NCBI GenBank assembly: GCA_963662275.1
Contig: OY759316.1
Span: 1,120,001 to 1,184,000 of the forward strand
Origin: Candidatus Cloacimonadales bacterium
GTDB lineage: Bacteria; Cloacimonadota; Cloacimonadia; Cloacimonadales; DAONDQ01
Direction of reading: 5' to 3'
DNA: 64,000 nt
Below are positions 3,118 through 15,500 of this stretch, piece by piece; within the stretch, counting starts at the first letter, position 1; each line of letters opens with the position of its first letter. Under the pieces are notes generated by a model. That model ran no database searches and had not been told where the DNA came from. It saw only the letters and a program-made list of their open reading frames with translations. The position numbers and the translations under genes are program-made.

Positions 3118-4304
3118 GACCGAACTTCATTGATTTTTTTTGTAAGCTTAGGGACAATTTCAAACAAATCACCCACAATACCCAAATCTGCTGCTTTAAA
3201 TATCGCTGCATCAGAATCTTTATTAATGGCTATAATGTAATCAGAAGAGGACATCCCGGCAAGATGCTGAACTGCCCCGGAAATACCACAGGCGATATAA
3301 ATACGGGGTTTAACTGTTTTCCCTGTCTGTCCTACCTGGTGGCTGTAAGATATCCATTCAGAATCAACGGCTGCTCGAGATGCTCCAACAGCACCATCAA
3401 GAGCATCTGCCAGGTCTTCCAATATTTTAAAATTAGCTGCATCCTTAAGACCACGTCCTCCGGAAACAATGACATTAGCTTCAACAATATTAATCAGGCT
3501 GGTTTGTTCTTTTACGAATTCCATATACTCAGAAATCTTCCAATCTTCAGGGATATCAATAGTCTCCGTTAAGACGATACCGGAACGATCGGGATCTCTT
3601 TCCAGGGGATTCATTACTTTGTGTCGTACAGTAGCCATTTGAGGTCTGTGATTGGGAGTAATAATGGTTGCCATGATATTACCCCCGAAAGCTGGTCGAG
3701 TTTGTTGAAGATTTCTATTTTCCAAATCAATTTTCAGTCCAGTGCAGTCAGCAGTTAAACCGGTTCGCAAGTTAACGGCAACTCTCGGTATAAATGAACG
3801 CCCTGTGGCTGTAGCTCCAGCCAGGATGATCTCTGGATTAAATTTTCTGCTTAGTTCAGTCAGGATATAGGCATATCTTTCTTCTGTATAATTGAGGAGC
3901 ACCGGATCATCTACAACAATGACTTTATCAGCACCATAAGCAATTAACTCAGAACTGAGTGGTTCTACTTCAGAACCGATCAGGATTGCCGTCAGTTCGG
4001 ATTCAAGTTCATCAGCTAGTTCCCTGCCCTTTCCTAATAACTCTAAGGTGACGGGAGCAATGGTTTTATGATGTTGTTCAGCATAGACCCAAACTCCGGA
4101 ATAATCATTTTTGTTCAGGGTTGGTTTTACATTTCTCCGAATCATGATTGCTTCAAAGGGACATGCACTAACACATGCGCCACAGAGAACACATTTATCC
4201 GAATTAATTTCAGCTATTTTATTCGATATTGTTACAGAATCATAGGCACATGCTTTGCTACATAGACCGCATCCTATACATTTATCCACGATCACTTCAA
4301 TCAT
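3114..4304 (-). CDS. etfA: Electron transfer flavoprotein alpha subunit with N-terminal 2x[4Fe-4S] ferredoxin domain
   Basis: Two CxxCxxCxxxC motifs; GLTADCT, RPAFGGN, QVGQTGKTV, GISGAVQHLAGM. Confidence 0.92.
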   Translation of the reverse strand: MIEVIVDKCIGCGLCSKACAYDSVTISNKIAEINSDKCVLCGACVSACPFEAIMIRRNVKPTLNKNDYSGVWVYAEQHHKTIAPVTLELLGKGRELADELESELTAILIGSEVEPLSSELIAYGADKVIVVDDPVLLNYTEERYAYILTELSRKFNPEIILAGATATGRSFIPRVAVNLRTGLTADCTGLKIDLENRNLQQTRPAFGGNIMATIITPNHRPQMATVRHKVMNPLERDPDRSGIVLTETIDIPEDWKISEYMEFVKEQTSLINIVEANVIVSGGRGLKDAANFKILEDLADALDGAVGASRAAVDSEWISYSHQVGQTGKTVKPRIYIACGISGAVQHLAGMSSSDYIIAINKDSDAAIFKAADLGIVGDLFEIVPKLTKKINEVRS

Positions 4305-4387
4305 GGGAATCTCCTTGAAGAATGGTAATGATTATTGGATAGGTTAAACGTGGAATTTCGTCAAGAAATTTATTTACAGGGAAAATC

Positions 4388-4418
4388 AAAAAAGGCTCTA
4401 ATTTCATAGAACCTTTTT
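4388..4418 (-). terminator. Probable intrinsic terminator of the HU-bS22-like transcript
   Basis: Minus strand GGUUCUA-loop-UAGAGCC hairpin followed by a U6 tract. Confidence 0.6.
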
Positions 4419-4440
4419 GATCTATACCATTCAAGAATTA

Positions 4441-4536
4441 TTATCTGATTCTTTTTTTATGTCTGTTCTTGCGTAGGCGTTTTTTTCTTTTGTGTGTTGC
4501 GATTTTATGTCTTTTTCTCTTTTTTCCGCAGGGCAT
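4441..4536 (-). CDS. 31-aa basic protein, bS22/mS38 (AURKAIP1/COX24, DUF1713)-like small ribosomal protein; not in ORF track
   Basis: Hand translation MPCGKKRKRHKIATHKRKKRLRKNRHKKRIR*; GGAGGAG Shine-Dalgarno just upstream; directly follows the HU gene. Confidence 0.8.
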   Translation of the reverse strand: MPCGKKRKRHKIATHKRKKRLRKNRHKKRIR

Positions 4537-4557
4537 TACTCCTCCTATGAATAGAAT

Positions 4558-4836
4558 TTATTGATCAGAGATTTCAGTTTTGAACTCTCTGGAGAACTTA
4601 AATGTGGGTACAGTTCTTTCTGGTACAGGAATCTTTTCATCAGTTTTCGGATTTCTGCCAATTCGAGGCTTTCTGACTTTCAGTTTGAAAGTTCCAAACC
4701 CGCGAATTTCAATATGATTGCCATCTTTCATACAATCCTTAATTGACTGCAAAAAAGTATCAACTACGATCGCTACATCCTTCCGAATAATGCCAGTATC
4801 TGTTGAAATGATTTTTACTAAATCGGCTTTAGTCAT
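4558..4836 (-). CDS. HU/IHF family DNA-binding protein
   Basis: MTKADLV, IEIRGFGTF, GRNPKT motifs; 92 aa. Confidence 0.92.
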   Translation of the reverse strand: MTKADLVKIISTDTGIIRKDVAIVVDTFLQSIKDCMKDGNHIEIRGFGTFKLKVRKPRIGRNPKTDEKIPVPERTVPTFKFSREFKTEISDQ

Positions 4837-4951
4837 TTGGTACTCCTTATATCCATAATTTAATGAAATAACTTCCTGTATATAAAGGGTTTAAAATTGA
4901 AATACAGGGAATGTGTCAAGAGAAATATCAATTTCATTATTTTCTGCATGT

Positions 4952-4980
4952 GTAGAGACGCCCAACTTGGGCGTCTCTAC
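4952..4980. repeat. GTAG-initiated REP-like perfect palindrome
   Basis: GTAGAGACGCCCAA-C-TTGGGCGTCTCTAC, 14-bp perfect arms. Confidence 0.7.
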
Positions 4981-5124
4981 GACTCAAAAAGAAACAATTT
5001 CCGATTTATCTTCTAAAGTCAATCTCTGGAATTTACATATTATCCCTTTTCCTGATCGAGAATCGACTAAATCTTTGCCAATGGATTATTTTTTTTTGGC
5101 TTTTTGTCCTGCTTCACCTTAGGA

Positions 5125-8100
5125 TCATTTACTTTTTAAACCGAATAGTTGCCCTAACCAACAACCGCAGGCAATTCCAGATGGTTGAGTACTAGTAAGG
5201 TAGTTAAAGTAGCACTGGTTACACTTATTATCTGATGCATACGCCTTAAAGATACTTGTAATTTGTTTGATCATACGAGCTTGAAGTTTAGAAAAATCAG
5301 CATCATCATCAACACAAGATGGACTTAATGATTTTAGCAAACGATGAACATTCTGTAAGATACCTCCGATAGGTGTGATTAATTCATAAAAACAATCCAG
5401 CGCTGCCAACGGAATTCCATATTGTGTTTGTGTATGTGCAGTCCTTTGTGCTTTGAAATTCCTGATTCTATCTCTTATTTGTTCATACGCTAATTCAGGA
5501 TAATATTTATAGCTTGTATCTTTCTCGAAAACATAATTACTTAACTGGATACCAATCCCATTCAACTGAAAATTCGCTAGATCGTGATACTCGGTCATTT
5601 TAACGATAATCTCACAGGCACGGTCTTTTCGCGGACTGTTTAATGGAACACCTAAATACCAAGTGGCATATGTGAATATGTCAGGTACTTGATACTTAAT
5701 ACAAAGTTGATTCAACTGATCAGTAGATAGATTATTTGTCAGGATTTCCAGAAATTGCTGATGAGAAGCAAACCAGTTCCTTGAGACAAAGATTGGTTTA
5801 TAACCTGGAGCATCTGGGTCTGCCTCAAACAATGCTGATATGTCATCTACCTGGTATCCGATACTGGATTGTTTGGCTATTCCGATAAATTCACTCACAG
5901 CCTGTTTCATGGCTTCTCCAGGTTCGATTATGCTATATGAAAATAGCAATTCTAAAAACATTGTGAAGTAATCCTCAGTCGTAGCAGAACCAAAATGATT
6001 TACTTCAATAGTCCCTTCGTAATCCTTACGTCTGATGATCAAATTCAGTCGCGGATTGATATAGAATGGATACGCAAGAGCATGAGCTGTCCTGATATTT
6101 GTATCTGCCTGGTTGTGACTGATATCGAGTACCGGATTGAATAATAGGTCTGGTTCTATCCAGGAGAGAGGATTGGCATTTCTGTGGGCATCATCAGCCA
6201 CAAAACTCAGAGATGACGGTTTCAGAAAGTAATTAGTTTTCCCAAATCTACCTTCTTTATGATCTTTTTTTACTTGATTCAAACCCATCCATCTTTCGCT
6301 CAAAAAAACTTTGTTGTCTGTTGGGGTTGACAATTTATTCTTAGGACTCATATTGATGTAGTCTGTGATTCTGAGTAAATTTGATTTATATCTATTGATT
6401 AAGTGTCCGGGAATACAACTGATTGTCAATGCATCTTTAACACTCTCATCTTCAATAATAATCGATATATCCGTAAACGGATCACTTGCTTTTATAATCT
6501 CTACGACCGGATGTGTCATACTATAGATGATCATTTCCTTCAGATACTTATGCCATTGCTCGTGAGAATCTTTATAAGGAAGTGGAGATTTCTTATCCCT
6601 ATCATAAATGAATGACCTGGAATCGGGATATTTTTCATTCAATTTTACTTGCAGATTGGCATACATATCGAATTCAGACTGAGATTTTCCTGGGAGAAAC
6701 AGTCTAATGGGAATTAATTCCTTCAACTCATTGTGAAAACTCGAAACAAAGGCAAAAGTATCCATCAACTCAAGGAGCCCATCATGTCTTTTGTGAATGT
6801 TATAGTACATTCGGTTGTGCCAACTGGACGATGATCTCTTGATATGGAATACAGAATACCATTCTCCGCAAAAGTACTCTCTCTGGAATTCAAAGATGTT
6901 ATCAGCAATAGCATTGCTGATATCATTAATCTGATTACGTGAGCCTTTACTGATTTGATTGACTATAATTATTGTTATTCCCTTCGCCAAACCAAAATGA
7001 GTAATTGTTGTGATCAAATCCTGAGCTTCAATTTGCTTGAATATATCGATCAGATTTTCCGTATTATCTAAGACCAGCCTCCTTACTTTGATTGGTACGG
7101 TGATTTTATATGAAAAATCGAACTTTTCATATTCGATTAATTTACTCTTTGTTGCATGTTCAGTTAAATAATCCTTGCCTTGATAAATAGCTTTAGAAGG
7201 ACTGAACTTAATTGGATCATCTTTGCTATTATCGGTTTTCAAATTTGCTTTTTCCCAAAGGATTCTTGATAGTTTAATCCGACAAAATAAATCATCAAAA
7301 TTATCAGTGATTATCTCATTTATAGCAAACGATTCAAGTGCACGAATGACGTCCATGATTTGTTCGAGATAGTACTCTTCGGAAAAATTCCTGACTTCAA
7401 AATGACAGATAACATCGGAAACGTTTCCCCAAATTTCGGGTTTCTTCTCAAATGCATTTGCGGGAATTATCACTTTTCCCCAAGGTGCATCAATTACCTT
7501 ATCATACTCATTTTCCTCATAATTTTCTCCAAACTTAACGATTAAACCGATTGCCTTATCGATGGGATAAGCATTCCTCAGAACGCCTTTTTTAGTACGG
7601 ACTGCTGATACTTCCTTCATTTCTGTCCATATTTTATCTGCTTCAGTTTGTGAGTAATTAATTTCACTAATATCACCAGGTAACTCAATTGGAATTTGTA
7701 AGAAATTATCATTAGTAAAATTATCTTCTTTTATGAATACCCATTTTTCGTCTCTATACGAACTCAAAGTAAAGAACTTGGAAAATGATGATTTATGACA
7801 TCCCTTCTCGCCATTAAGTAAACTAACAGAATTCTTTAAAAAATATGGTTTCATTTCAGGTTTTTTTAGATGCGTATATTCAAAGAAATTGATGATGCCA
7901 TCAATTTTGATTCCATATTCTTTCATTTCTCTAATTGGCTGTATCTGTTTTAACTGGTTTGGTATCAATTCCATTAAGGCAGAGGCTGATGGATAAATAC
8001 CAAATGGAGCTTGACCCTTTGTCGAAAAATGGAAGGGATGTCGACCATAACACATATCCTGGAAACGGCTTTCAATTAACTCTATATACCGAAGATACTC

Positions 8101-9330
8101 ACCATTGATATTTCTTTTCTCAAAACCCATCACCACATCGCAGAAGTACTCAACCATAGTATCTTTAATGGAAGGATCTTTTTCCTGTGTTAGCAGAAGA
8201 ATAGTATTATTCTGTTTGGTTGAGTTTCTGTCGGGCATAGTATCTAGAATGGATCGAAACGCCTGTAACACCTGTCGCCATTTTGACTGCTCAACATCCA
8301 TATCCAAAACAGCATTGATTGAGTCGATCACCACAATATGCCTTTCATCTGATGATCTGCTCTTTTGAAAGGATTCCTCATGAACCTGTACTTTGTGAAG
8401 TAAGTCTGCTGCTGAACACATCGGAACAGGATGGATTGACATCACGAGTTTTTTTGTATTATTTACTTTTTTGAATAATTTCAGGCAGTCTTCTTTTTCC
8501 TCTTGGATATAAACCACTTCATCTTTACTTAGTCCTGTAGGTAAAGTTTTTTCGTCATAGATACATAGTAAATCAAAACTGGTAATACAACGCAAAATAT
8601 TAGTATATGATTGTTCAAGAATGAAATAATCGATAACAAAAGAAAGTGGTTCTGCCTTCTTATAATGTATTTTAGTTTTGCTTTTGTTAAGCATAAATCT
8701 GGGGTCATCGCAGTTTTTTAACAAAGCACATACTAAATTCACTAAAAAAGTTGTTTTTCCCGCACCTGATTCTCCATCAACGGTGATCATGGCAGTGCTC
8801 TTCTTAGGAAGTAGAAAGCCACCCATCATCAGTTGATTCAACCCGGATATTCCTGTATCATATCCGAAATAGGAACAGATGAAATCTTTCGGAATCGCTA
8901 TAAAATCCTTGATTAAGATTTCAACTGACTTTTCTTTAGTTGTTTCATCACGTTTTAAATAAATATTATAAAAGGTTCTTTCCCAGGCAATTGAAGGGTC
9001 AGATATTAGTTTCACTTCGTCCGATGATTCATCTTTTGAACTCGGATAACCATAAAAAATGTTGTCTAATAAAGCAAGCATGGCAGTATAAGGTTGTTGC
9101 ATAACATCTTCATATTTTGATTCTTCAGATCTGATCCTTTCCAGTTCTTCAATTTGCTTCTTATCAATTTTGATGGTGATCCAACCCATTTGACTTTTCT
9201 GGAGTTCCTCGATTGTGGAATTTATAGTCTCGGTTGTTGAATTTCTGCTTTTTGCATATTCATGATTAACATGTCTTTCCAAGTCTTTAAGAAAATTAAA
9301 GCTAGCCTGTGTATATTCCAATATTTTCAT
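5125..9330 (-). CDS. 1401-aa protein: tandem KaiC/RecA-like ATPase domains (second degenerate) plus probable C-terminal solute-binding-protein-like fold
   Basis: Walker A GESGAGKTT, FILEQ, Walker B IVVIDSIN, VEYFCDVV, RYIELIESR; second domain GEKGCHKS/RLVLDN/IADNIFEF; C-terminal PFYINPRL and ATWYLGVPLNSPRKDRACEII resemble ABC sugar-type SBP motifs; no signal peptide. Confidence 0.65.
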   Translation of the reverse strand: MKILEYTQASFNFLKDLERHVNHEYAKSRNSTTETINSTIEELQKSQMGWITIKIDKKQIEELERIRSEESKYEDVMQQPYTAMLALLDNIFYGYPSSKDESSDEVKLISDPSIAWERTFYNIYLKRDETTKEKSVEILIKDFIAIPKDFICSYFGYDTGISGLNQLMMGGFLLPKKSTAMITVDGESGAGKTTFLVNLVCALLKNCDDPRFMLNKSKTKIHYKKAEPLSFVIDYFILEQSYTNILRCITSFDLLCIYDEKTLPTGLSKDEVVYIQEEKEDCLKLFKKVNNTKKLVMSIHPVPMCSAADLLHKVQVHEESFQKSRSSDERHIVVIDSINAVLDMDVEQSKWRQVLQAFRSILDTMPDRNSTKQNNTILLLTQEKDPSIKDTMVEYFCDVVMGFEKRNINGEYLRYIELIESRFQDMCYGRHPFHFSTKGQAPFGIYPSASALMELIPNQLKQIQPIREMKEYGIKIDGIINFFEYTHLKKPEMKPYFLKNSVSLLNGEKGCHKSSFSKFFTLSSYRDEKWVFIKEDNFTNDNFLQIPIELPGDISEINYSQTEADKIWTEMKEVSAVRTKKGVLRNAYPIDKAIGLIVKFGENYEENEYDKVIDAPWGKVIIPANAFEKKPEIWGNVSDVICHFEVRNFSEEYYLEQIMDVIRALESFAINEIITDNFDDLFCRIKLSRILWEKANLKTDNSKDDPIKFSPSKAIYQGKDYLTEHATKSKLIEYEKFDFSYKITVPIKVRRLVLDNTENLIDIFKQIEAQDLITTITHFGLAKGITIIIVNQISKGSRNQINDISNAIADNIFEFQREYFCGEWYSVFHIKRSSSSWHNRMYYNIHKRHDGLLELMDTFAFVSSFHNELKELIPIRLFLPGKSQSEFDMYANLQVKLNEKYPDSRSFIYDRDKKSPLPYKDSHEQWHKYLKEMIIYSMTHPVVEIIKASDPFTDISIIIEDESVKDALTISCIPGHLINRYKSNLLRITDYINMSPKNKLSTPTDNKVFLSERWMGLNQVKKDHKEGRFGKTNYFLKPSSLSFVADDAHRNANPLSWIEPDLLFNPVLDISHNQADTNIRTAHALAYPFYINPRLNLIIRRKDYEGTIEVNHFGSATTEDYFTMFLELLFSYSIIEPGEAMKQAVSEFIGIAKQSSIGYQVDDISALFEADPDAPGYKPIFVSRNWFASHQQFLEILTNNLSTDQLNQLCIKYQVPDIFTYATWYLGVPLNSPRKDRACEIIVKMTEYHDLANFQLNGIGIQLSNYVFEKDTSYKYYPELAYEQIRDRIRNFKAQRTAHTQTQYGIPLAALDCFYELITPIGGILQNVHRLLKSLSPSCVDDDADFSKLQARMIKQITSIFKAYASDNKCNQCYFNYLTSTQPSGIACGCWLGQLFGLKSK

Positions 9331-9338
9331 GCGTCCTC

Positions 9339-11510
9339 CTAATTTAGTGAAAGAATTTTTTGTATGTGATTTCGTACTTTGTCTACAAGATGGAAAAGAA
9401 CCTGGTTGCTGGACCCTTGAATTGAAAAGTGTTTTTTAAAATCCTCTAAACATCGGTCTATAATTAACTGAATACTCTGTGTTGCTTTACCGCCAAAATT
9501 CAATTCCAGATGTTCTAATGGATGATGATCCATGCTCTGCAGTCGGTTATAGGTGATGCATTCTATGGGTATCCACAACTGGTCAGAAGTTTTTAATTGG
9601 GTATATAGCGTCTCCAAATCGATTAAATACTTGCTAATCAAGTTAATGATGTTGGCTGAAAAAGCCTTCTGAGCCTCGTTTACGATAGAGAGAATTTGTT
9701 CCTCTCTTTCCAGGATACCTTCAAAAAGACTATCTTTGAGAAATTTGTTAAGCTTAGTGATAGGTGGATGTTTGGAAAGTAAATTCAGATACAACTGAGT
9801 AACAAATTTATCCTTAAGCTGTCTGATATATTTCTCTGGCGCAAGAGAATTTTTTAGTTCAATGATAGAGGTCTTATCTCTGAAATAGTGGGTAAGTTCA
9901 TTTTCACTAAGATTATCAATCAATTCATCCTTGAATAGTTTGAGTTGAAGATCTTTATCAAAACTCTCATATTCATGAAGCAGATCCTCAAACAACATTA
10001 GATATTCCATAAAAATACAATATGTCTGATGATTAGCACTAAATTCCTTCCAACTGGATTCAAGAATTCCGATGATTCTGGTCAGTTCATAATTCGAGAT
10101 AGGATAATTACCGATATTCCTCAATTGGGATAAGACTGGATTTAATGAAAATGTGCAGGATTCAGTGAGATTTAGATTTTGATAACGATATTCAAAAGTA
10201 TTGATTAATTCATTGATTTCTTCTTGTTTATGAGAACCGGATTTTTCTAATTTTTTGATTTGCTTAATCAGATTTTTCGTAAATGGTATTTCTAAGGTCA
10301 AATCTGCTGACAGGTCAGCTTTTCTGTATGATTGCGCTAAGCGAAGCAGCATATTTGTCCAGTTGTCTTTAAAATTGTCACTTAATGCTGTATCATTGAT
10401 TCTAAAATCGTTAAAAGCAATTGGCTTGAATTGGCAAACTAATTCCCTATTCCATACTTGCAGTTCATCAACCAGAATCAACAGATATAATAGAGGTAAT
10501 CTTATCCCAGATATCTTTTCCTTATATCCTTTACTGAAAATCCCTTCTTTAAATTTATCATAATGATGGAGAGAAGCATTACTGATTGCATCTGTAAAAT
10601 CCTTCATTTCCTGGATGATTCGGATGATACTTGCATAGGAAATAGTAGTTTCACTGCTATTTAAAAATATTCCCAGTTCGTGATAATAACCTTTTATTGC
10701 TTCTAAACCACCCAGTATATCATGAGAACCATATTCTTCGACAAAATTCTCCACAGCAATTCGTTTTATTGAATCACTTATCTGATTACTTGAGAATTTT
10801 CCAAGCCTGCCTTGGAGTCGATGGCTTATAATATCAAGCGCATTATCATGGAGTAAATAAGGAGGGACAAATCCTGTTGTGAGGGAATTTTCAATTTCGG
10901 CTATTCCTGAAATATTGATAATATCCTCGAAATGTGGGATTGTCACAGAAAAAACCTGATTTGTTGTATGAAAATGGTGCTTAGCTTCCATATTCATGGC
11001 GTTATAGCTAATTTGTGGAAGATAGGCGATATCATGGAAAAATGCAGTGATAGCCCAACGTCTATGGAATCTTTCATAATCTGGGTGATGAGATAAAGGC
11101 AGGACTTCCGAGGATGGACTCATATATATATTATCGAGCTTTTCAAAATCGATATTCGCAAGCAGCATATTCCCCAGAAAATCATCTTTCATCAAGTACA
11201 AACCCATCAGATAATTATAAACAGAATGTAGATAATGTGATCGATAATCTTTAGTAATCCACGGGAATCCATAATCAACTTTTAAAAGTGAAGTAATATA
11301 CCCTTGCAGGATTCTTTCGATACAATGCGTTTCAAATCCAAGATTACGTATCGTTTGAATCATTAATCTCTGGGCAATATCAGTTTTTTCTTCATTATCA
11401 TTGGATGATAGAAATTGATTAATTAAATGAACATTGTTCACAGGAATGATTCGATCGGATGATTTCACAAAAAAATCTAATAACACTGAATCTATCAAAG
11501 TATCCGGCAT
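9339..11510 (-). CDS. 723-aa HD-superfamily phosphohydrolase domain protein with helical C-terminal extension
   Basis: RSHYLHS...FFHDIAY...SHDILG...SLHH...LVDELQVWNR metal-binding pattern; stop sits 8 nt before the ATPase start, with GGAGG between them. Confidence 0.7.
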   Translation of the reverse strand: MPDTLIDSVLLDFFVKSSDRIIPVNNVHLINQFLSSNDNEEKTDIAQRLMIQTIRNLGFETHCIERILQGYITSLLKVDYGFPWITKDYRSHYLHSVYNYLMGLYLMKDDFLGNMLLANIDFEKLDNIYMSPSSEVLPLSHHPDYERFHRRWAITAFFHDIAYLPQISYNAMNMEAKHHFHTTNQVFSVTIPHFEDIINISGIAEIENSLTTGFVPPYLLHDNALDIISHRLQGRLGKFSSNQISDSIKRIAVENFVEEYGSHDILGGLEAIKGYYHELGIFLNSSETTISYASIIRIIQEMKDFTDAISNASLHHYDKFKEGIFSKGYKEKISGIRLPLLYLLILVDELQVWNRELVCQFKPIAFNDFRINDTALSDNFKDNWTNMLLRLAQSYRKADLSADLTLEIPFTKNLIKQIKKLEKSGSHKQEEINELINTFEYRYQNLNLTESCTFSLNPVLSQLRNIGNYPISNYELTRIIGILESSWKEFSANHQTYCIFMEYLMLFEDLLHEYESFDKDLQLKLFKDELIDNLSENELTHYFRDKTSIIELKNSLAPEKYIRQLKDKFVTQLYLNLLSKHPPITKLNKFLKDSLFEGILEREEQILSIVNEAQKAFSANIINLISKYLIDLETLYTQLKTSDQLWIPIECITYNRLQSMDHHPLEHLELNFGGKATQSIQLIIDRCLEDFKKHFSIQGSSNQVLFHLVDKVRNHIQKILSLN

Positions 11511-11657
11511 TTACCCATCCTTTTAAATTCCCTTATGTATCTTTGAATTCCCAATAGTTTATTACTATGTCTGAATCGTTATATGTTATTTTATTTGTCA
11601 ATAATTAATTTCAAACATTCATTTATTCCTGTATTATAACATAATCAGCCAACCTCT

Positions 11658-11740
11658 TCATCTTTGAACTTCTCTCAGGACTTTCTCATCTTTAAACTTC
11701 TCTCAGGACTCCCTCAGACAACTCTTAAATAACTCTTAAG
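11658..11740. repeat. Direct repeats in the AT-rich divergent intergenic region
   Basis: TCATCTTT(G/A)AACTTCTCTCAGGACT twice at 28-bp period; AACTCTTAA twice at 11-bp period. Confidence 0.6.
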
Positions 11741-12503
11741 ACCTGAGAGAAAAATGAGTATTGGTTGAGAGTTTGCTAACTTTGAAGTGAGTGTAATTTT
11801 CTTGACTAGTAAATCATGAAAATATATGAATTTATATTGTAACTCCTTGTTTTATCTAAATACTGGAAATTCTTTCTTGCTTAAATTTTGCATTGACTTA
11901 GACTATTAGATATTACTCAGGAGAAATTATTGAAAATAACTTCTAATTATTCTCCTTTTCTAGTCTTTTTTTCACTGTTGATAATCCGACATACTTGAGT
12001 ACAGTACAAGGTATGAATGAATTAGAAGTGAGTAGAAAAGGGAATGGGAAAGAAAAGAAAATGAGAATACTGAGATCAAAGTCAGTATTTTTTAAATTGA
12101 ACATAATATGAAGCAGATGAGATGTATATATTTTATAAAAAGCGAAGTTTTAACTGTTTATCCGATTGTTGACTGGCACAACCTAGAGAATATTTTGGAG
12201 ATAAACTATTGAAAAGAAGGAAAAGACAAAACAAGGATAATTCTGATTGTACTATAATTTAAATCACAAAATAGAGGATTTTCCTAATTTATAAGTAGTC
12301 CCAAATGAAAAAAACATTGACAAATGGATATGGAATAAACAAAGATGATATAATAAGAGTGGTAGAATAATAAGTAATTTTCCAATCGGGTAGGCGCTGA
12401 TAAAATATATATGCGTCAATTATATTGGAGTATCATATAAATCTATCATTAACTAATAATTAATTATACAAAAAGAATAAGCGTATTTACAGGAGTGTGA
12501 TTT

Positions 12504-15500
12504 ATGAAACGGATATTTTATGTTATCTTAATGGTAATTATCAGCTTGTCCATCTTAAATGCAGCGCCGACAGACTGGCTCAAACTTTCTGGCTCTGCTA
12601 TTACCCCCCAGGTAATTCAAGATATACAAAATAGTAACCGAGATGTCCGTGGACCCTCTTTTAATTTTACTTCTCCTTATAACTTACCAACAACGGCGGA
12701 AATAGCTGTCAGTAATCTATTTCTGGAGGATACATCCTGGACAAAAGATTTTACTACCCTTGTTATTCCTGCCGGTGGAACTTACTATCTTTATTACAGT
12801 AATCCAGAACACTTTACCATAACACAGGATCTCGTGAATCCTCTCATCTTGACATTTGCCCCCAAACCTTTGAACTGGAATGGCTCAGAAATGGTTATTC
12901 TGACTGTATCTGATGTACCCCTAGGCAGAGAAAGCAGAGCCTATTCAACAGCTATAATTAGGTTGAATGTTACACCTGTTCCGGATCCACCGATTTTGAA
13001 CTTTCCTCTAATATTTCCTCCCGAATTCTTAGAAGATACCACATTAACTGTGAATTTTGCAGATTATGTTCAGTGCGTTGATAGTGCTCCCAATAACTTT
13101 GATTTATATCTTTCGCAAACTCAACTTCCACCTTACAATGTCGAAATATCCCAAGTACCTGCTAATATTGGTCAAATTGTAACATTTACACCAAAACATG
13201 ATTTCAATGGTGAAGTGAATTTTGTATTAACAGCAGTTGATAGAACAACGAGTGCCCTCGTTTCAACAACTATAACTGTGGATGTACAGGCTGTAAATGA
13301 TGCACCAGTAATCGATAGTTTTATCCCTATACTCACAAACCAGAATATTGAGCAATACAGTACATTGAATTTTTCTATTGTAGCACATGATGTGGATTTG
13401 ACACCGCTTGATTATTCATGGACTGTTTCAGGTACTCATAACGGAGTTCCCTTTTCCGATGTTTTTTCGACTCTTTCCACCGGTGCTTATACTTTCAATT
13501 TTCCGGGACTGTATACGGTAGAGGTCGATGTAAATGATGGGGTGAATCATGTTCACCAGACTTGGAATGTGACTGTTGCACCGACAGGTCCTATCTTTAA
13601 TCCTTGGGGTGGAGTATATTTGCATCCAGTTTCAGTGACTCTTACTCCTCCTGCAGAATATCCGACTGCTCCCATTTATTACACCATAAATGGGACACTA
13701 CCGGATAACACGTCGTTGCTTTTTAATCCAGCCAATCCCATATTGATTTCTGCCGGATTGAATAATGACAACATCGTGACTGTGAAAGCAATCTATTATG
13801 AAACTGGATTGCCCCCATCTAGTATCATAACGCAGAATTACCAAATCACAGGTACTGTACATGCCCCTGTGTTTTCTCCAGATCCTGCGGTTTATTATCC
13901 TAATGCCCAACAGGTTCATATTTCCACACCGACTATCGGTGCTTCCATTTATTATACAATAGATGGAACTGATCCTGTTGTCGGTGCGCCTAATACTTTC
14001 CTGTATTCAGATTTAACTCCGATTGATGTTCCCTTGAACACCACGAAAGTCATAAAGGCAATTGCCATGAAAACAGATTGGCAAGCTAGTAGTATTGTCA
14101 CAGCTACCTATAATGTTACGGGAACAGTTGTGATCAGTCATTATGAATTTAATCCCTCTCCAGGTCATTACGATGTTCCACTCGGTGATGTTTTAGATGT
14201 CAATATCAATAATATTGTATTAGCTCCAATGGATGCAGTTCTACATTATACTATTGATAACAGCATACCTACAACAAGCTCTCCAGTTTATAACGCAGGT
14301 CATACTTTTATTTTTAGTACACCGACAACAATCAGAATACGAGCATTTAAAACAAACTGGCAGCCCAGTGATATTATCAGCGTCGAATACGATATAGCTG
14401 GACAGGTAGTCATCGATCGTTATCCTGATCCAAATAATACAGTATTTAATCCTGCACCAGGGATCTTCTCTACTTCTCAAAATGTGACGATCAATAGCAC
14501 AATACCACCAGGCGGTTCGATCTATTACTCACTTGATGGGTCAGATCCAGTCGTTGGTGGTCTCACAACCTTCCAATACTTTGGACCAGTTCTCATAACT
14601 TCATCCAAGATAATTAAAGCCATAGCTACCTATTCAGGGTTAAGACAAAGTCCTGTTTATCAAGGTGGATATACGATAACTGGTACTGTGGCAACACCTG
14701 CCTTCATGCCTCCTGCTGGCGTATATCCTTCCTCCCAGGAAGTTGAAATTAGCTGCGCTACTCCAGGAGCTAGCATTTATTATACACTTGAAAATAATCT
14801 TATTGGGAGTGAACCTGTCATTGGTGCTGCTAATACTTTCCTTTATACTGCTCCATTTACAGTAACTGTTCCAGTTGGATATTCGACTTTGAAAGCCAGG
14901 GCTTTTTTGAATACCTGGGAACCTAGTGCAATAACGACTGGTATATATAGTATAGCAAGGCTCCCGATGCCATCTTTCAATCTTGTGTCAGGAACTTACC
15001 CCGTATCACAGACTATCCATATAACTGATGTTTCGGAGAGAGCTGCTAAAATCTATTATACTCTGGATGGTACTGATCCTACAGAAGATTCTAATTTGTA
15101 TAATGATATTTCTCCCATAGTCTTAGCTGAGAATACAACAACCATCATTCGAGCTCGAGCTTTTAAAGCTGGTTGGAATCCCAGTGATGTAGCAGCACGC
15201 ACATATACGATCACAGGTACCGTTAGTGATCCTCAATTTGCTCCCCCATCAGGTACTTATCCTCTTCCAACAGATGTATCAATTTTCTCTACAACTCCCG
15301 GTAGTACGATTAGATATACAACTAACGGAGTTGTTCCTACACCTACCTTTGGAACAGTTTATAGTGATCCTATCCATGTTTCTTCAGGATTGACAATCAA
15401 AGCTATAGCATATCAGGCAGATTGGAATAATTCCAATGTTACAGAGGCAACATATATCATTTCAGGTATTGTTGGAAATCCTGTTTTTACTCCACCTGCA

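Follow-up and report, generated by a model that had tools for sequence, protein, structure and literature searches.

What does a bacterium gain from placing an HD-type hydrolase under the same translational control as a very large KaiC-like ATPase? The question is raised by two genes in a 64,000-nt window from Candidatus Cloacimonadales bacterium (GenBank assembly GCA_963662275.1, contig OY759316.1, positions 1,120,001 to 1,184,000 of the forward strand; "the window" is this whole stretch), where open reading frames (ORFs) of 723 and 1401 aa follow one another on the minus strand. An initial annotation made from the sequence had read them as an HD phosphohydrolase coupled to a double KaiC-like ATPase with a solute-binding-protein-like tail, and had proposed a small-molecule-sensing switch linked to a nucleotide-hydrolysing enzyme, that is, an uncharacterised signalling or anti-phage module. 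We find that the HD-like and ATPase genes form a real, conserved and translationally coupled unit. Both proteins belong to known superfamilies (HD and KaiC/RecA), while the architecture of the ATPase is unique and the HD clade lies outside curated models.

Conservation of the gene pair

The sequence bears out the gene layout first described for the window: the 723-aa and 1401-aa ORFs are separated by a spacer of 8 nt between the TAG stop of the HD-like gene and the ATG of the ATPase gene, with a GGAGG motif at the junction (Table 1). The same arrangement recurs elsewhere. In tblastn searches, the HD-like gene was found directly upstream of the ATPase gene, and on the same strand, at all seven distinct loci that carry the ATPase, namely the window copy (copy 1), copy 2 (L006), L008 (the same locus as L011 and G084), L012 (the same as L013), L009 (the same as G087), L010 and G141/L070. 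Co-occurrence of homologs, which had been named beforehand as one of the points on which the proposal could fail, is therefore observed without exception among these loci. At most the two genes overlap by 58 nt or stand 15 nt apart, and the G141 pair sits on a 5.6-kb contig whose end cuts the ATPase gene. The only database relative of the window ATPase (P0002) is P0004, which comes from the same 9317-bp ENA contig as the HD-like protein P0018, and these two probably represent an eighth pair. A comparison of the neighbours of the window, copy 2 and the related loci revealed no third gene common to them.

The second copy lies in the same genome (G000:C1:2606254-2612415) and encodes an HD-like protein of 626 aa (P0003, 68% identical) and an ATPase of 1432 aa (P0005, 65%), in surroundings unlike those of the window: a TetR regulator, peptidases and cargo of the type IX secretion system (T9SS). 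Between copies 1 and 2 the proportion of nonsynonymous differences (pN 0.21/0.23) is well below that of synonymous differences (pS 0.70/0.74), and we therefore regard both copies as old and under purifying selection. An IS21-family element with an IstB-like ATPase and a Mu-type transposase domain lies ~3 kb downstream of copy 2 (L007:3456-5785, corresponding to G000:C1 ~2615455-2617784).

Both proteins are cytoplasmic by hydropathy. Neither has a transmembrane segment, a signal peptide or a hydrophobic N-terminus, in agreement with what had been read from the sequence, and the highest 19-residue Kyte-Doolittle mean (1.72) falls in a core strand of the ATPase.

The two proteins

As judged from its motifs and a predicted structure, the 723-aa protein is a very divergent member of the HD superfamily with an all-alpha HD fold. 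Two findings place it there: the conservation of an H, HD, H, H, D set and the structural matches of a confident model. All seven residues of the set (H92, H95, H159, D160, H263, H315 and D348) are invariant in six family members. When the comparison is widened to a 64-sequence alignment of single-domain members of a larger clade, H92, H95, G103, H263, H315 and D348 stay invariant and conservation is 90% or higher at R90, W152, H159, D160, Y163, P339, Q351, W353 and R355, so that the full H...HD...H...H...D set reported for this protein proves to be real. The AlphaFold2 model of the core, built from the 64-sequence alignment, is all-helical and ordered to about residue 355, with a mean predicted local distance difference test score (pLDDT) of 81.7 and a predicted template modelling score (pTM) of 0.82. 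Among the 50 VIA-align rows for this model, the title or a review's list identifies 35 as HD proteins or class-I phosphodiesterases, a further 12 we take to be proteins containing HD-type domains, and 3 are unrelated or unknown. The top structural matches include YhaM (9h3f), PgpH (4s1b), HD-GYP proteins (4r8z/4mcw), Cas3-HD (8wth), YqeK (8wmy) and class-I phosphodiesterases, the nearest being phosphodiesterases and an exoribonuclease. When hhalign is run with 13 canonical HD domains from the window's genome, H95 and the FFHD motif fall into register with motifs I and II, at a weak level (P 0.0011, probability 21%), and the 64 clade members give weak matches to HDIG (12 members, best E 5.5e-4), the cyanamide-hydratase family (8) and cas3_HD (2).

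A review (PMC8177086) describes mononuclear HD phosphatases as carrying H...HD...D, and polynuclear phosphodiesterases as carrying additional histidines. By this rule, the H, HD, H, H, D set would point to a site for two metals and to chemistry of the phosphodiesterase or nuclease type. Remote relatives align only with profile positions ~70-350, and the second half of the protein is specific to the family and poorly conserved; 97 of its residues (514-610) are missing from the paralogue.

These remote relatives belong to a broad clade. A search with the HD-like profile returned at least 291 representative clusters (50% identity) at E<=0.001. A Pfam scan of 67 clade members found no family in 48, RyR in 12, AP_endonuc_2 (a TIM barrel) in 2 and GAF in 1. 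An HD domain was detected in 3 of the 67, in two of them elsewhere in the protein and in the third, P0059, across motifs I-II with a score at the cut-off. One distant HD-like protein of 649 aa, in genome G219 (L071:4712-12440, minus strand), has an extra N-terminal domain of ~200 aa, and its gene belongs to a tightly packed operon of six genes, one of them for an ABC-type ATPase-like protein and none for a KaiC-like ATPase (neighbours named by eye from N-terminal sequence). It was considered as a member of the module and set aside, as its operon is a different one and lacks the ATPase.

The partner of the HD-like protein is, by its profile matches and conserved motifs, a tandem KaiC-like ATPase. 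The Pfam KaiC model (PF06745) matches P0002 over three stretches with 57.9 bits against a cut-off of 26.6 (E 1.2e-15), and the paralogue with 47 bits. In a profile alignment, positions 335-451 of the family correspond to ~131-247 of KaiC CI, and 728-846 to ~342-468 of KaiC CII. Domain 1 contains a canonical Walker A motif, GESGAGKT, and its E239, D336 and R422 are conserved across five members. In domain 2 the P-loop reads G-x-x-G-C-H/N-K-S/T: the glycine that precedes the lysine is lost and the lysine-S/T is retained. Domain 2 also keeps R832, the D755 of Walker B and E602, the acidic residue that follows the P-loop; these positions, too, are conserved in five members. The description of one intact and one degenerate KaiC-like domain therefore holds for the tandem arrangement and the canonical Walker A, while the degeneracy of domain 2 is only mild, because the P-loop glycine alone is lost and the other catalytic residues are kept. 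Domain 2 may still bind nucleotide. It also contains a variable insertion (~620-745), which is much longer and coiled-coil-like in P0004 and P0013.

The sequence data also indicate that this ATPase is not a clock protein. The columns of the KaiC phosphosites, which we take to be residues 431 and 432 in KaiC numbering, are occupied by N806-A807, invariant in a three-member alignment; in 8zn6 the same columns read S-T, and the mutant chain of 7s65 has E-A there. Furthermore, the score with the NCBIfam KaiC equivalog NF006799 is 41 bits, where the cut-off is 408. No kaiA or kaiB was found among the neighbours of the window, copy 2 or the related loci, and the annotated neighbours in the window, as reported earlier, include neither of these genes nor an ABC permease. 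We conclude against a clock function because of the N-A pair at the phosphosites, the lack of kaiB nearby and the low equivalog score.

The C-terminal region of the ATPase (residues 866-1401), hereafter the tail, is conserved in all full-length members and contains four invariant cysteines (C1313, C1370, C1373 and C1388) that suggest a metal site. Its likeness to solute-binding proteins (SBPs), which formed part of the original proposal, is still a candidate reading but was not confirmed on closer analysis. Two leads point that way. ESM Atlas features place the tail with SBP_bac_8/SBP_bac_1 clusters (0.94, ~107 of 256 features shared), a level of agreement often reached by shuffled proteins as well. 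To the eye, the segment around LNSPRKDRACEIIVKMT is similar to a strand-helix motif found in an SBP of a related genome (L056), and it may also resemble maltose-binding-type proteins. Set against these leads, a Pfam search of four tails at E<=10 found no SBP model (PF13416, PF01547), a PDB profile search with the tail returned nothing meaningful, and an hhalign comparison between the tail and 25 SBP_bac_8 proteins from the same order, which represent one low-diversity SBP family, gave P 0.3, no better than the P of 0.57 for the reversed control. The AlphaFold2 model of the tail, from a four-sequence alignment, reaches a pLDDT of 33.6. Stand-alone homologues of the tail were not found; 7286 candidates yielded one fragmentary family member. 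As the tail is internal to a cytoplasmic protein whose N-terminus is not hydrophobic, it also lacks the export signal or lipobox of an SBP.

Proposed mechanism and alternatives

We tentatively favour a reading, at a probability of roughly 0.45, in which the pair is a machine made of an ATPase switch and an HD effector, the former acting as a sensor or switch that gates an HD phosphodiesterase or nuclease. This reading is preferred because the pairing is fixed, the coupling is tight, and the two products show the division of labour of a multi-domain nucleoside triphosphatase (NTPase) and a metal-dependent hydrolase. Both genes would contribute to one cytoplasmic machine, perhaps a physical complex. 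By analogy with KaiC, the two tandem P-loop domains of the ATPase might assemble into a double-ring hexamer. The large C-terminal domain would be the likely input, or sensor, and the HD-like metalloenzyme the likely output, which may cleave a phosphodiester in a cyclic or linear nucleotide signal or in nucleic acid. A ligand of the tail would set the nucleotide state of the ATPase and in this way switch the HD enzyme on or off. From the HD enzyme and ATPase switch of the initial annotation, the HD fold and the tandem KaiC-like ATPase are retained here; a nucleotide rather than a nucleic acid as substrate, and the sensing of a small molecule, go beyond our results.

Several observations weigh against this reading. 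The alignment and structure tests described above lend no support to a sensor role of the tail. For the HD-like protein, a Foldseek search of the model against the PDB gave no match at E<=0.001, and Pfam, NCBIfam, PADLOC and PDB profiles are all silent. In a Pfam search of six members at E<=10 no HD model appeared among the scattered, chance-level matches. A six-frame scan of the genome with PF01966 finds 13 other loci and neither of the two HD-like genes. Finally, the second histidine of the 'HH' pair known from polynuclear phosphodiesterases (LHHYD here) is present only in the two copies of this genome, the other members having H-N at this position.

A bolder version of the switch-and-effector reading would make the pair a new class of sensor-effector, in which a KaiC-type double-ring ATPase with a cytoplasmic tail of solute-binding fold (or another ligand- or Zn-binding fold) responds to a metabolite inside the cell or to a molecule derived from infection and then licenses a dinuclear HD phosphodiesterase or nuclease of an unrecognised clade. 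We consider this version improbable and offer it as speculation.

The distribution of the module bears on the alternatives. A pattern and tblastn scan located two loci among the species representatives, each in a Candidatus Cloacimonadota metagenome-assembled genome, and four on metagenome contigs, two of which duplicate other loci; on viral contigs, none of 119 pattern matches was a confirmed relative. The HD-core profile matched 10 of 232 genomes of the phylum, strongly in only four (this genome, G000, and G084, G087 and G141), and the tail profile matched 5 of the 232. Neither the HD-core nor the tail profile matched G001, the single congeneric genome (99% complete), and the ATPase profile matched none of 40 related genomes. 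All located members, the window's genome included, come from one bacterial order or from unclassified metagenome contigs. The T9SS domains might suggest a Bacteroidota host, but this genome falls into the same order as the Candidatus Cloacimonadota metagenome-assembled genomes. The HD-like profile retrieved 12 proteins or clusters at E<=1e-30 among 1.84 billion representative proteins, and a word-based search of 5.8 billion proteins retrieved only the query itself, the paralogue, P0004 and P0162, with the reservation that the search with P0002 did not list its paralogue. Remnants were also found. In G063 (L072:11881-13869), a 663-codon frame covers ATPase profile positions 748-1371 only, the 3' part of the gene, and the HD-like gene is absent within 19 kb. 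In G044 (L073:7497-7865), a 123-codon fragment of the ATPase tail is left, and in G010 (G010:C265:1287-2273) an HD-like frame has two in-frame TAA stops and no ATPase beside it. The few strong matches, the remnants and the 12 proteins at E<=1e-30 show that the module is very rare, accessory and prone to loss.

Such a distribution would suit a defence system, and the chief alternative is that the pair acts against phages or plasmids: the ATPase would detect invader nucleic acid or translocate on it, or the tail would sense a cue of infection, and the HD protein would degrade DNA, RNA or nucleotides, after the logic of Cas3 (HD nuclease plus motor) or of sensor-NTPase/effector pairs. In favour of this are the patchy spread, the extreme rarity and the decayed remnants just described, as well as the two diverged copies in one genome with an IS21 element ~3 kb from the second. 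PADLOC-DB 2.0.0, which was also applied to five neighbour ORFs, adds a weak match to mad8 (of MADS) over the first P-loop region (E 0.0019 for P0002, 2.9e-5 for P0004). Against it, PADLOC finds no family for the HD-like protein (P0001), nor for P0006 and P0012, gives P0007 a weak match to GajB (E 3.7e-4) and matches the ATPase weakly at the P-loop only, and no relative was confirmed on viral contigs. Typical defence systems, moreover, spread across phyla, whereas the located members keep to one order or to unclassified contigs. The genomic context does not help either. One flank of the window pair holds HU, an electron transfer flavoprotein (ETF) subunit, an amidohydrolase and a radical SAM protein, and across four contexts the neighbours are ETF, amidohydrolase, radical SAM, HU, TetR, peptidases, ABC exporters, dNK, SRAP, RecA/RecX and T9SS cargo, with no defence-related Pfam domain among those annotated. 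We judge this alternative less likely than the switch-and-effector reading, which might itself serve either signalling or defence; the anti-phage role first suggested for the module lacks support from its neighbours and from viral contigs. The other half of that suggestion, that the module is uncharacterised, stands: the pair matches no described system in PADLOC, NCBIfam or the literature searched, a search that most subscription papers lay beyond.

T9SS cargo leads to a third explanation. The other flank of the window pair is occupied by a 6828-aa protein that ends in a T9SS sorting domain; scanned over its first 1000 and last 996 residues, it shows Cadherin-like and PKD domains besides numerous CHB_HEX_C_1/Fn3_assoc repeats. 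In all four independent contexts (the window, copy 2, L008/L012 and L009) the pair is directly flanked by a gene whose product ends in a T9SS sorting domain (FlgD_ig/Por_Secre_tail), as would fit a housekeeping-type regulator of the cell surface or the T9SS that controls the expression, secretion or turnover of the neighbouring cargo. The adjacency is, however, a post hoc observation, and chance could account for it, as such neighbours are common in this genome, which has at least 150 Por_Secre_tail matches (278 candidates). The orientation and identity of the cargo gene also vary by locus, L010 has a response regulator upstream instead, and most genomes of the order carry T9SS-type cargo without the pair. 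We hold this explanation to be very improbable.

A KaiC-type timer, whether hourglass or oscillator, with the HD enzyme as its output is essentially excluded, since the alignment of the tandem domains with CI and CII is outweighed by the phosphosite columns, the kaiA- and kaiB-free neighbourhoods and the equivalog score given above.

The coordinates of the pair and of its T9SS-type neighbours are collected in Table 1. Upstream of the HD-like gene, two 25-nt direct repeats (24 of 25 positions identical, 28 nt apart, found by eye) lie at 11686-11710 and 11658-11682 of the window on the minus strand, ~150-200 nt before the start codon and inside a divergent intergenic region of ~1 kb; they may be an operator. 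An Rfam search of window positions 4300-12600 gave nothing at E<=1, and a promoter and terminator scan gave signals no stronger than in shuffled sequence.

Table 1 Features of the HD-like/ATPase locus (window positions unless a locus is named; gene coordinates include the stop codon)
Feature	Coordinates	Strand	Basis or remark
HD-like gene (P0001, 723 aa)	9339..11510	-	ORF list and translation; upstream of the ATPase gene in 7/7 loci
Predicted HD-superfamily core, residues 1-~360; ligand candidates H92/H95, H159-D160, H263, H315, D348	10431..11510	-	
Family-specific C-terminal half of HD-like protein, residues ~361-723	9342..10430	-	Alignments; poorly conserved
GGAGG (ribosome-binding motif); overlaps the TAG that ends the HD-like gene	9335..9339	-	Sequence read directly
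Tandem KaiC-like ATPase gene (P0002, 1401 aa)	5125..9330	-	ORF list and translation, Pfam KaiC, family profile
ATPase N-terminal family-specific region, residues 1-~150	8881..9330	-	No family match; weakly conserved in alignments
KaiC-like domain 1, residues ~155-465; E239, Walker B D336, R422	7936..8868	-	Pfam KaiC, profile against CI, invariant columns
Walker A GESGAGKT, ATPase residues 186-193	8752-8775	-	
KaiC-like domain 2, residues ~470-865; E602, Walker B D755, R832	6736..7923	-	Profile against CII, alignments
Altered P-loop GEKGCHKS, ATPase residues 507-514	7789-7812	-	
ATPase C-terminal ~536-aa domain (tail), residues 866-1401	5128..6735	-	Conserved in all full-length members
T9SS-type neighbours	window 12504-32990; L006:16616-17971, 8202-9374; L008:1573-4929; L012:42-1742; L009:3451-7068	+ (window)	

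Relation to known systems

Comparison with KaiC (8zn5, 7s65, 1tf7) reveals two tandem P-loop domains in both proteins, each of those studied here aligning with one half of KaiC, and a shared Walker B Asp, post-P-loop acidic residue and K/R-x-R-type motif. The window ATPase is, however, ~2.7 times longer, with a 150-aa N-terminal region, large insertions and a 536-aa C-terminal domain, and it differs further in the missing glycine before the lysine of the second P-loop, the N-A phosphosite columns and the lack of KaiA and KaiB. The HD-like protein, for its part, shares its predicted all-helical fold with dinuclear HD phosphodiesterases and nucleases, and its H, HD, H, H, D pattern offers ligands beyond those of the mononuclear H...HD...D set, as in dinuclear HD enzymes. 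It departs from known HD enzymes in having no similarity to any HD model at the level of hidden Markov models (HMMs), ~25 extra residues between motif I and HD, an extra invariant R90-x-H92 before the first histidine, an 'HH' pair that is not conserved in the family, and a family-specific C-terminal half of 360 aa.

Cas3 likewise joins an HD nuclease to a large ATP-driven partner; the fold matches include Cas3-HD, and 2 of the 64 clade members match cas3_HD weakly. Its motor is an SF2 helicase, though, whereas the ATPase described here is of the RecA/KaiC tandem P-loop type, and there is no CRISPR/Cascade context. Cytoplasmic solute-binding-like regulatory domains are fused to ATPases in NrtC/CmpC of cyanobacterial ABC importers, to our knowledge the only precedent for an intracellular SBP-like sensor on an ATPase. 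Those ATPases are of the ABC class rather than the KaiC class and occur in another context, and an SBP fold of the tail in our protein is a candidate only. Closer in kind are the archaeal KaiC-like ATPases, which have been proposed as signal-transduction hubs (Makarova, Galperin and Koonin 2017, as cited in PMC13700489). These are also KaiC-family ATPases outside clocks, with varied input and output modules; the ATPase in the window differs from them in being bacterial and tandem fused and in having a dedicated HD partner.

A strictly paired and uncharacterised operon now has parts that can be tested, among them Walker A K192, the HD residues H159/D160 and the tail cysteines. The HD-like protein also draws attention to a clade of the HD superfamily that every curated HMM library has missed, and many 'hypothetical proteins' could be re-annotated through it. 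KaiC-like ATPases outside clocks are poorly understood, and a fixed HD output partner would be one of the few identifiable enzymatic effectors for them. If the tail should prove to have a cytoplasmic binding-protein fold, the pair would be a rare case of an intracellular sensor of this kind used on a RecA-type ATPase.

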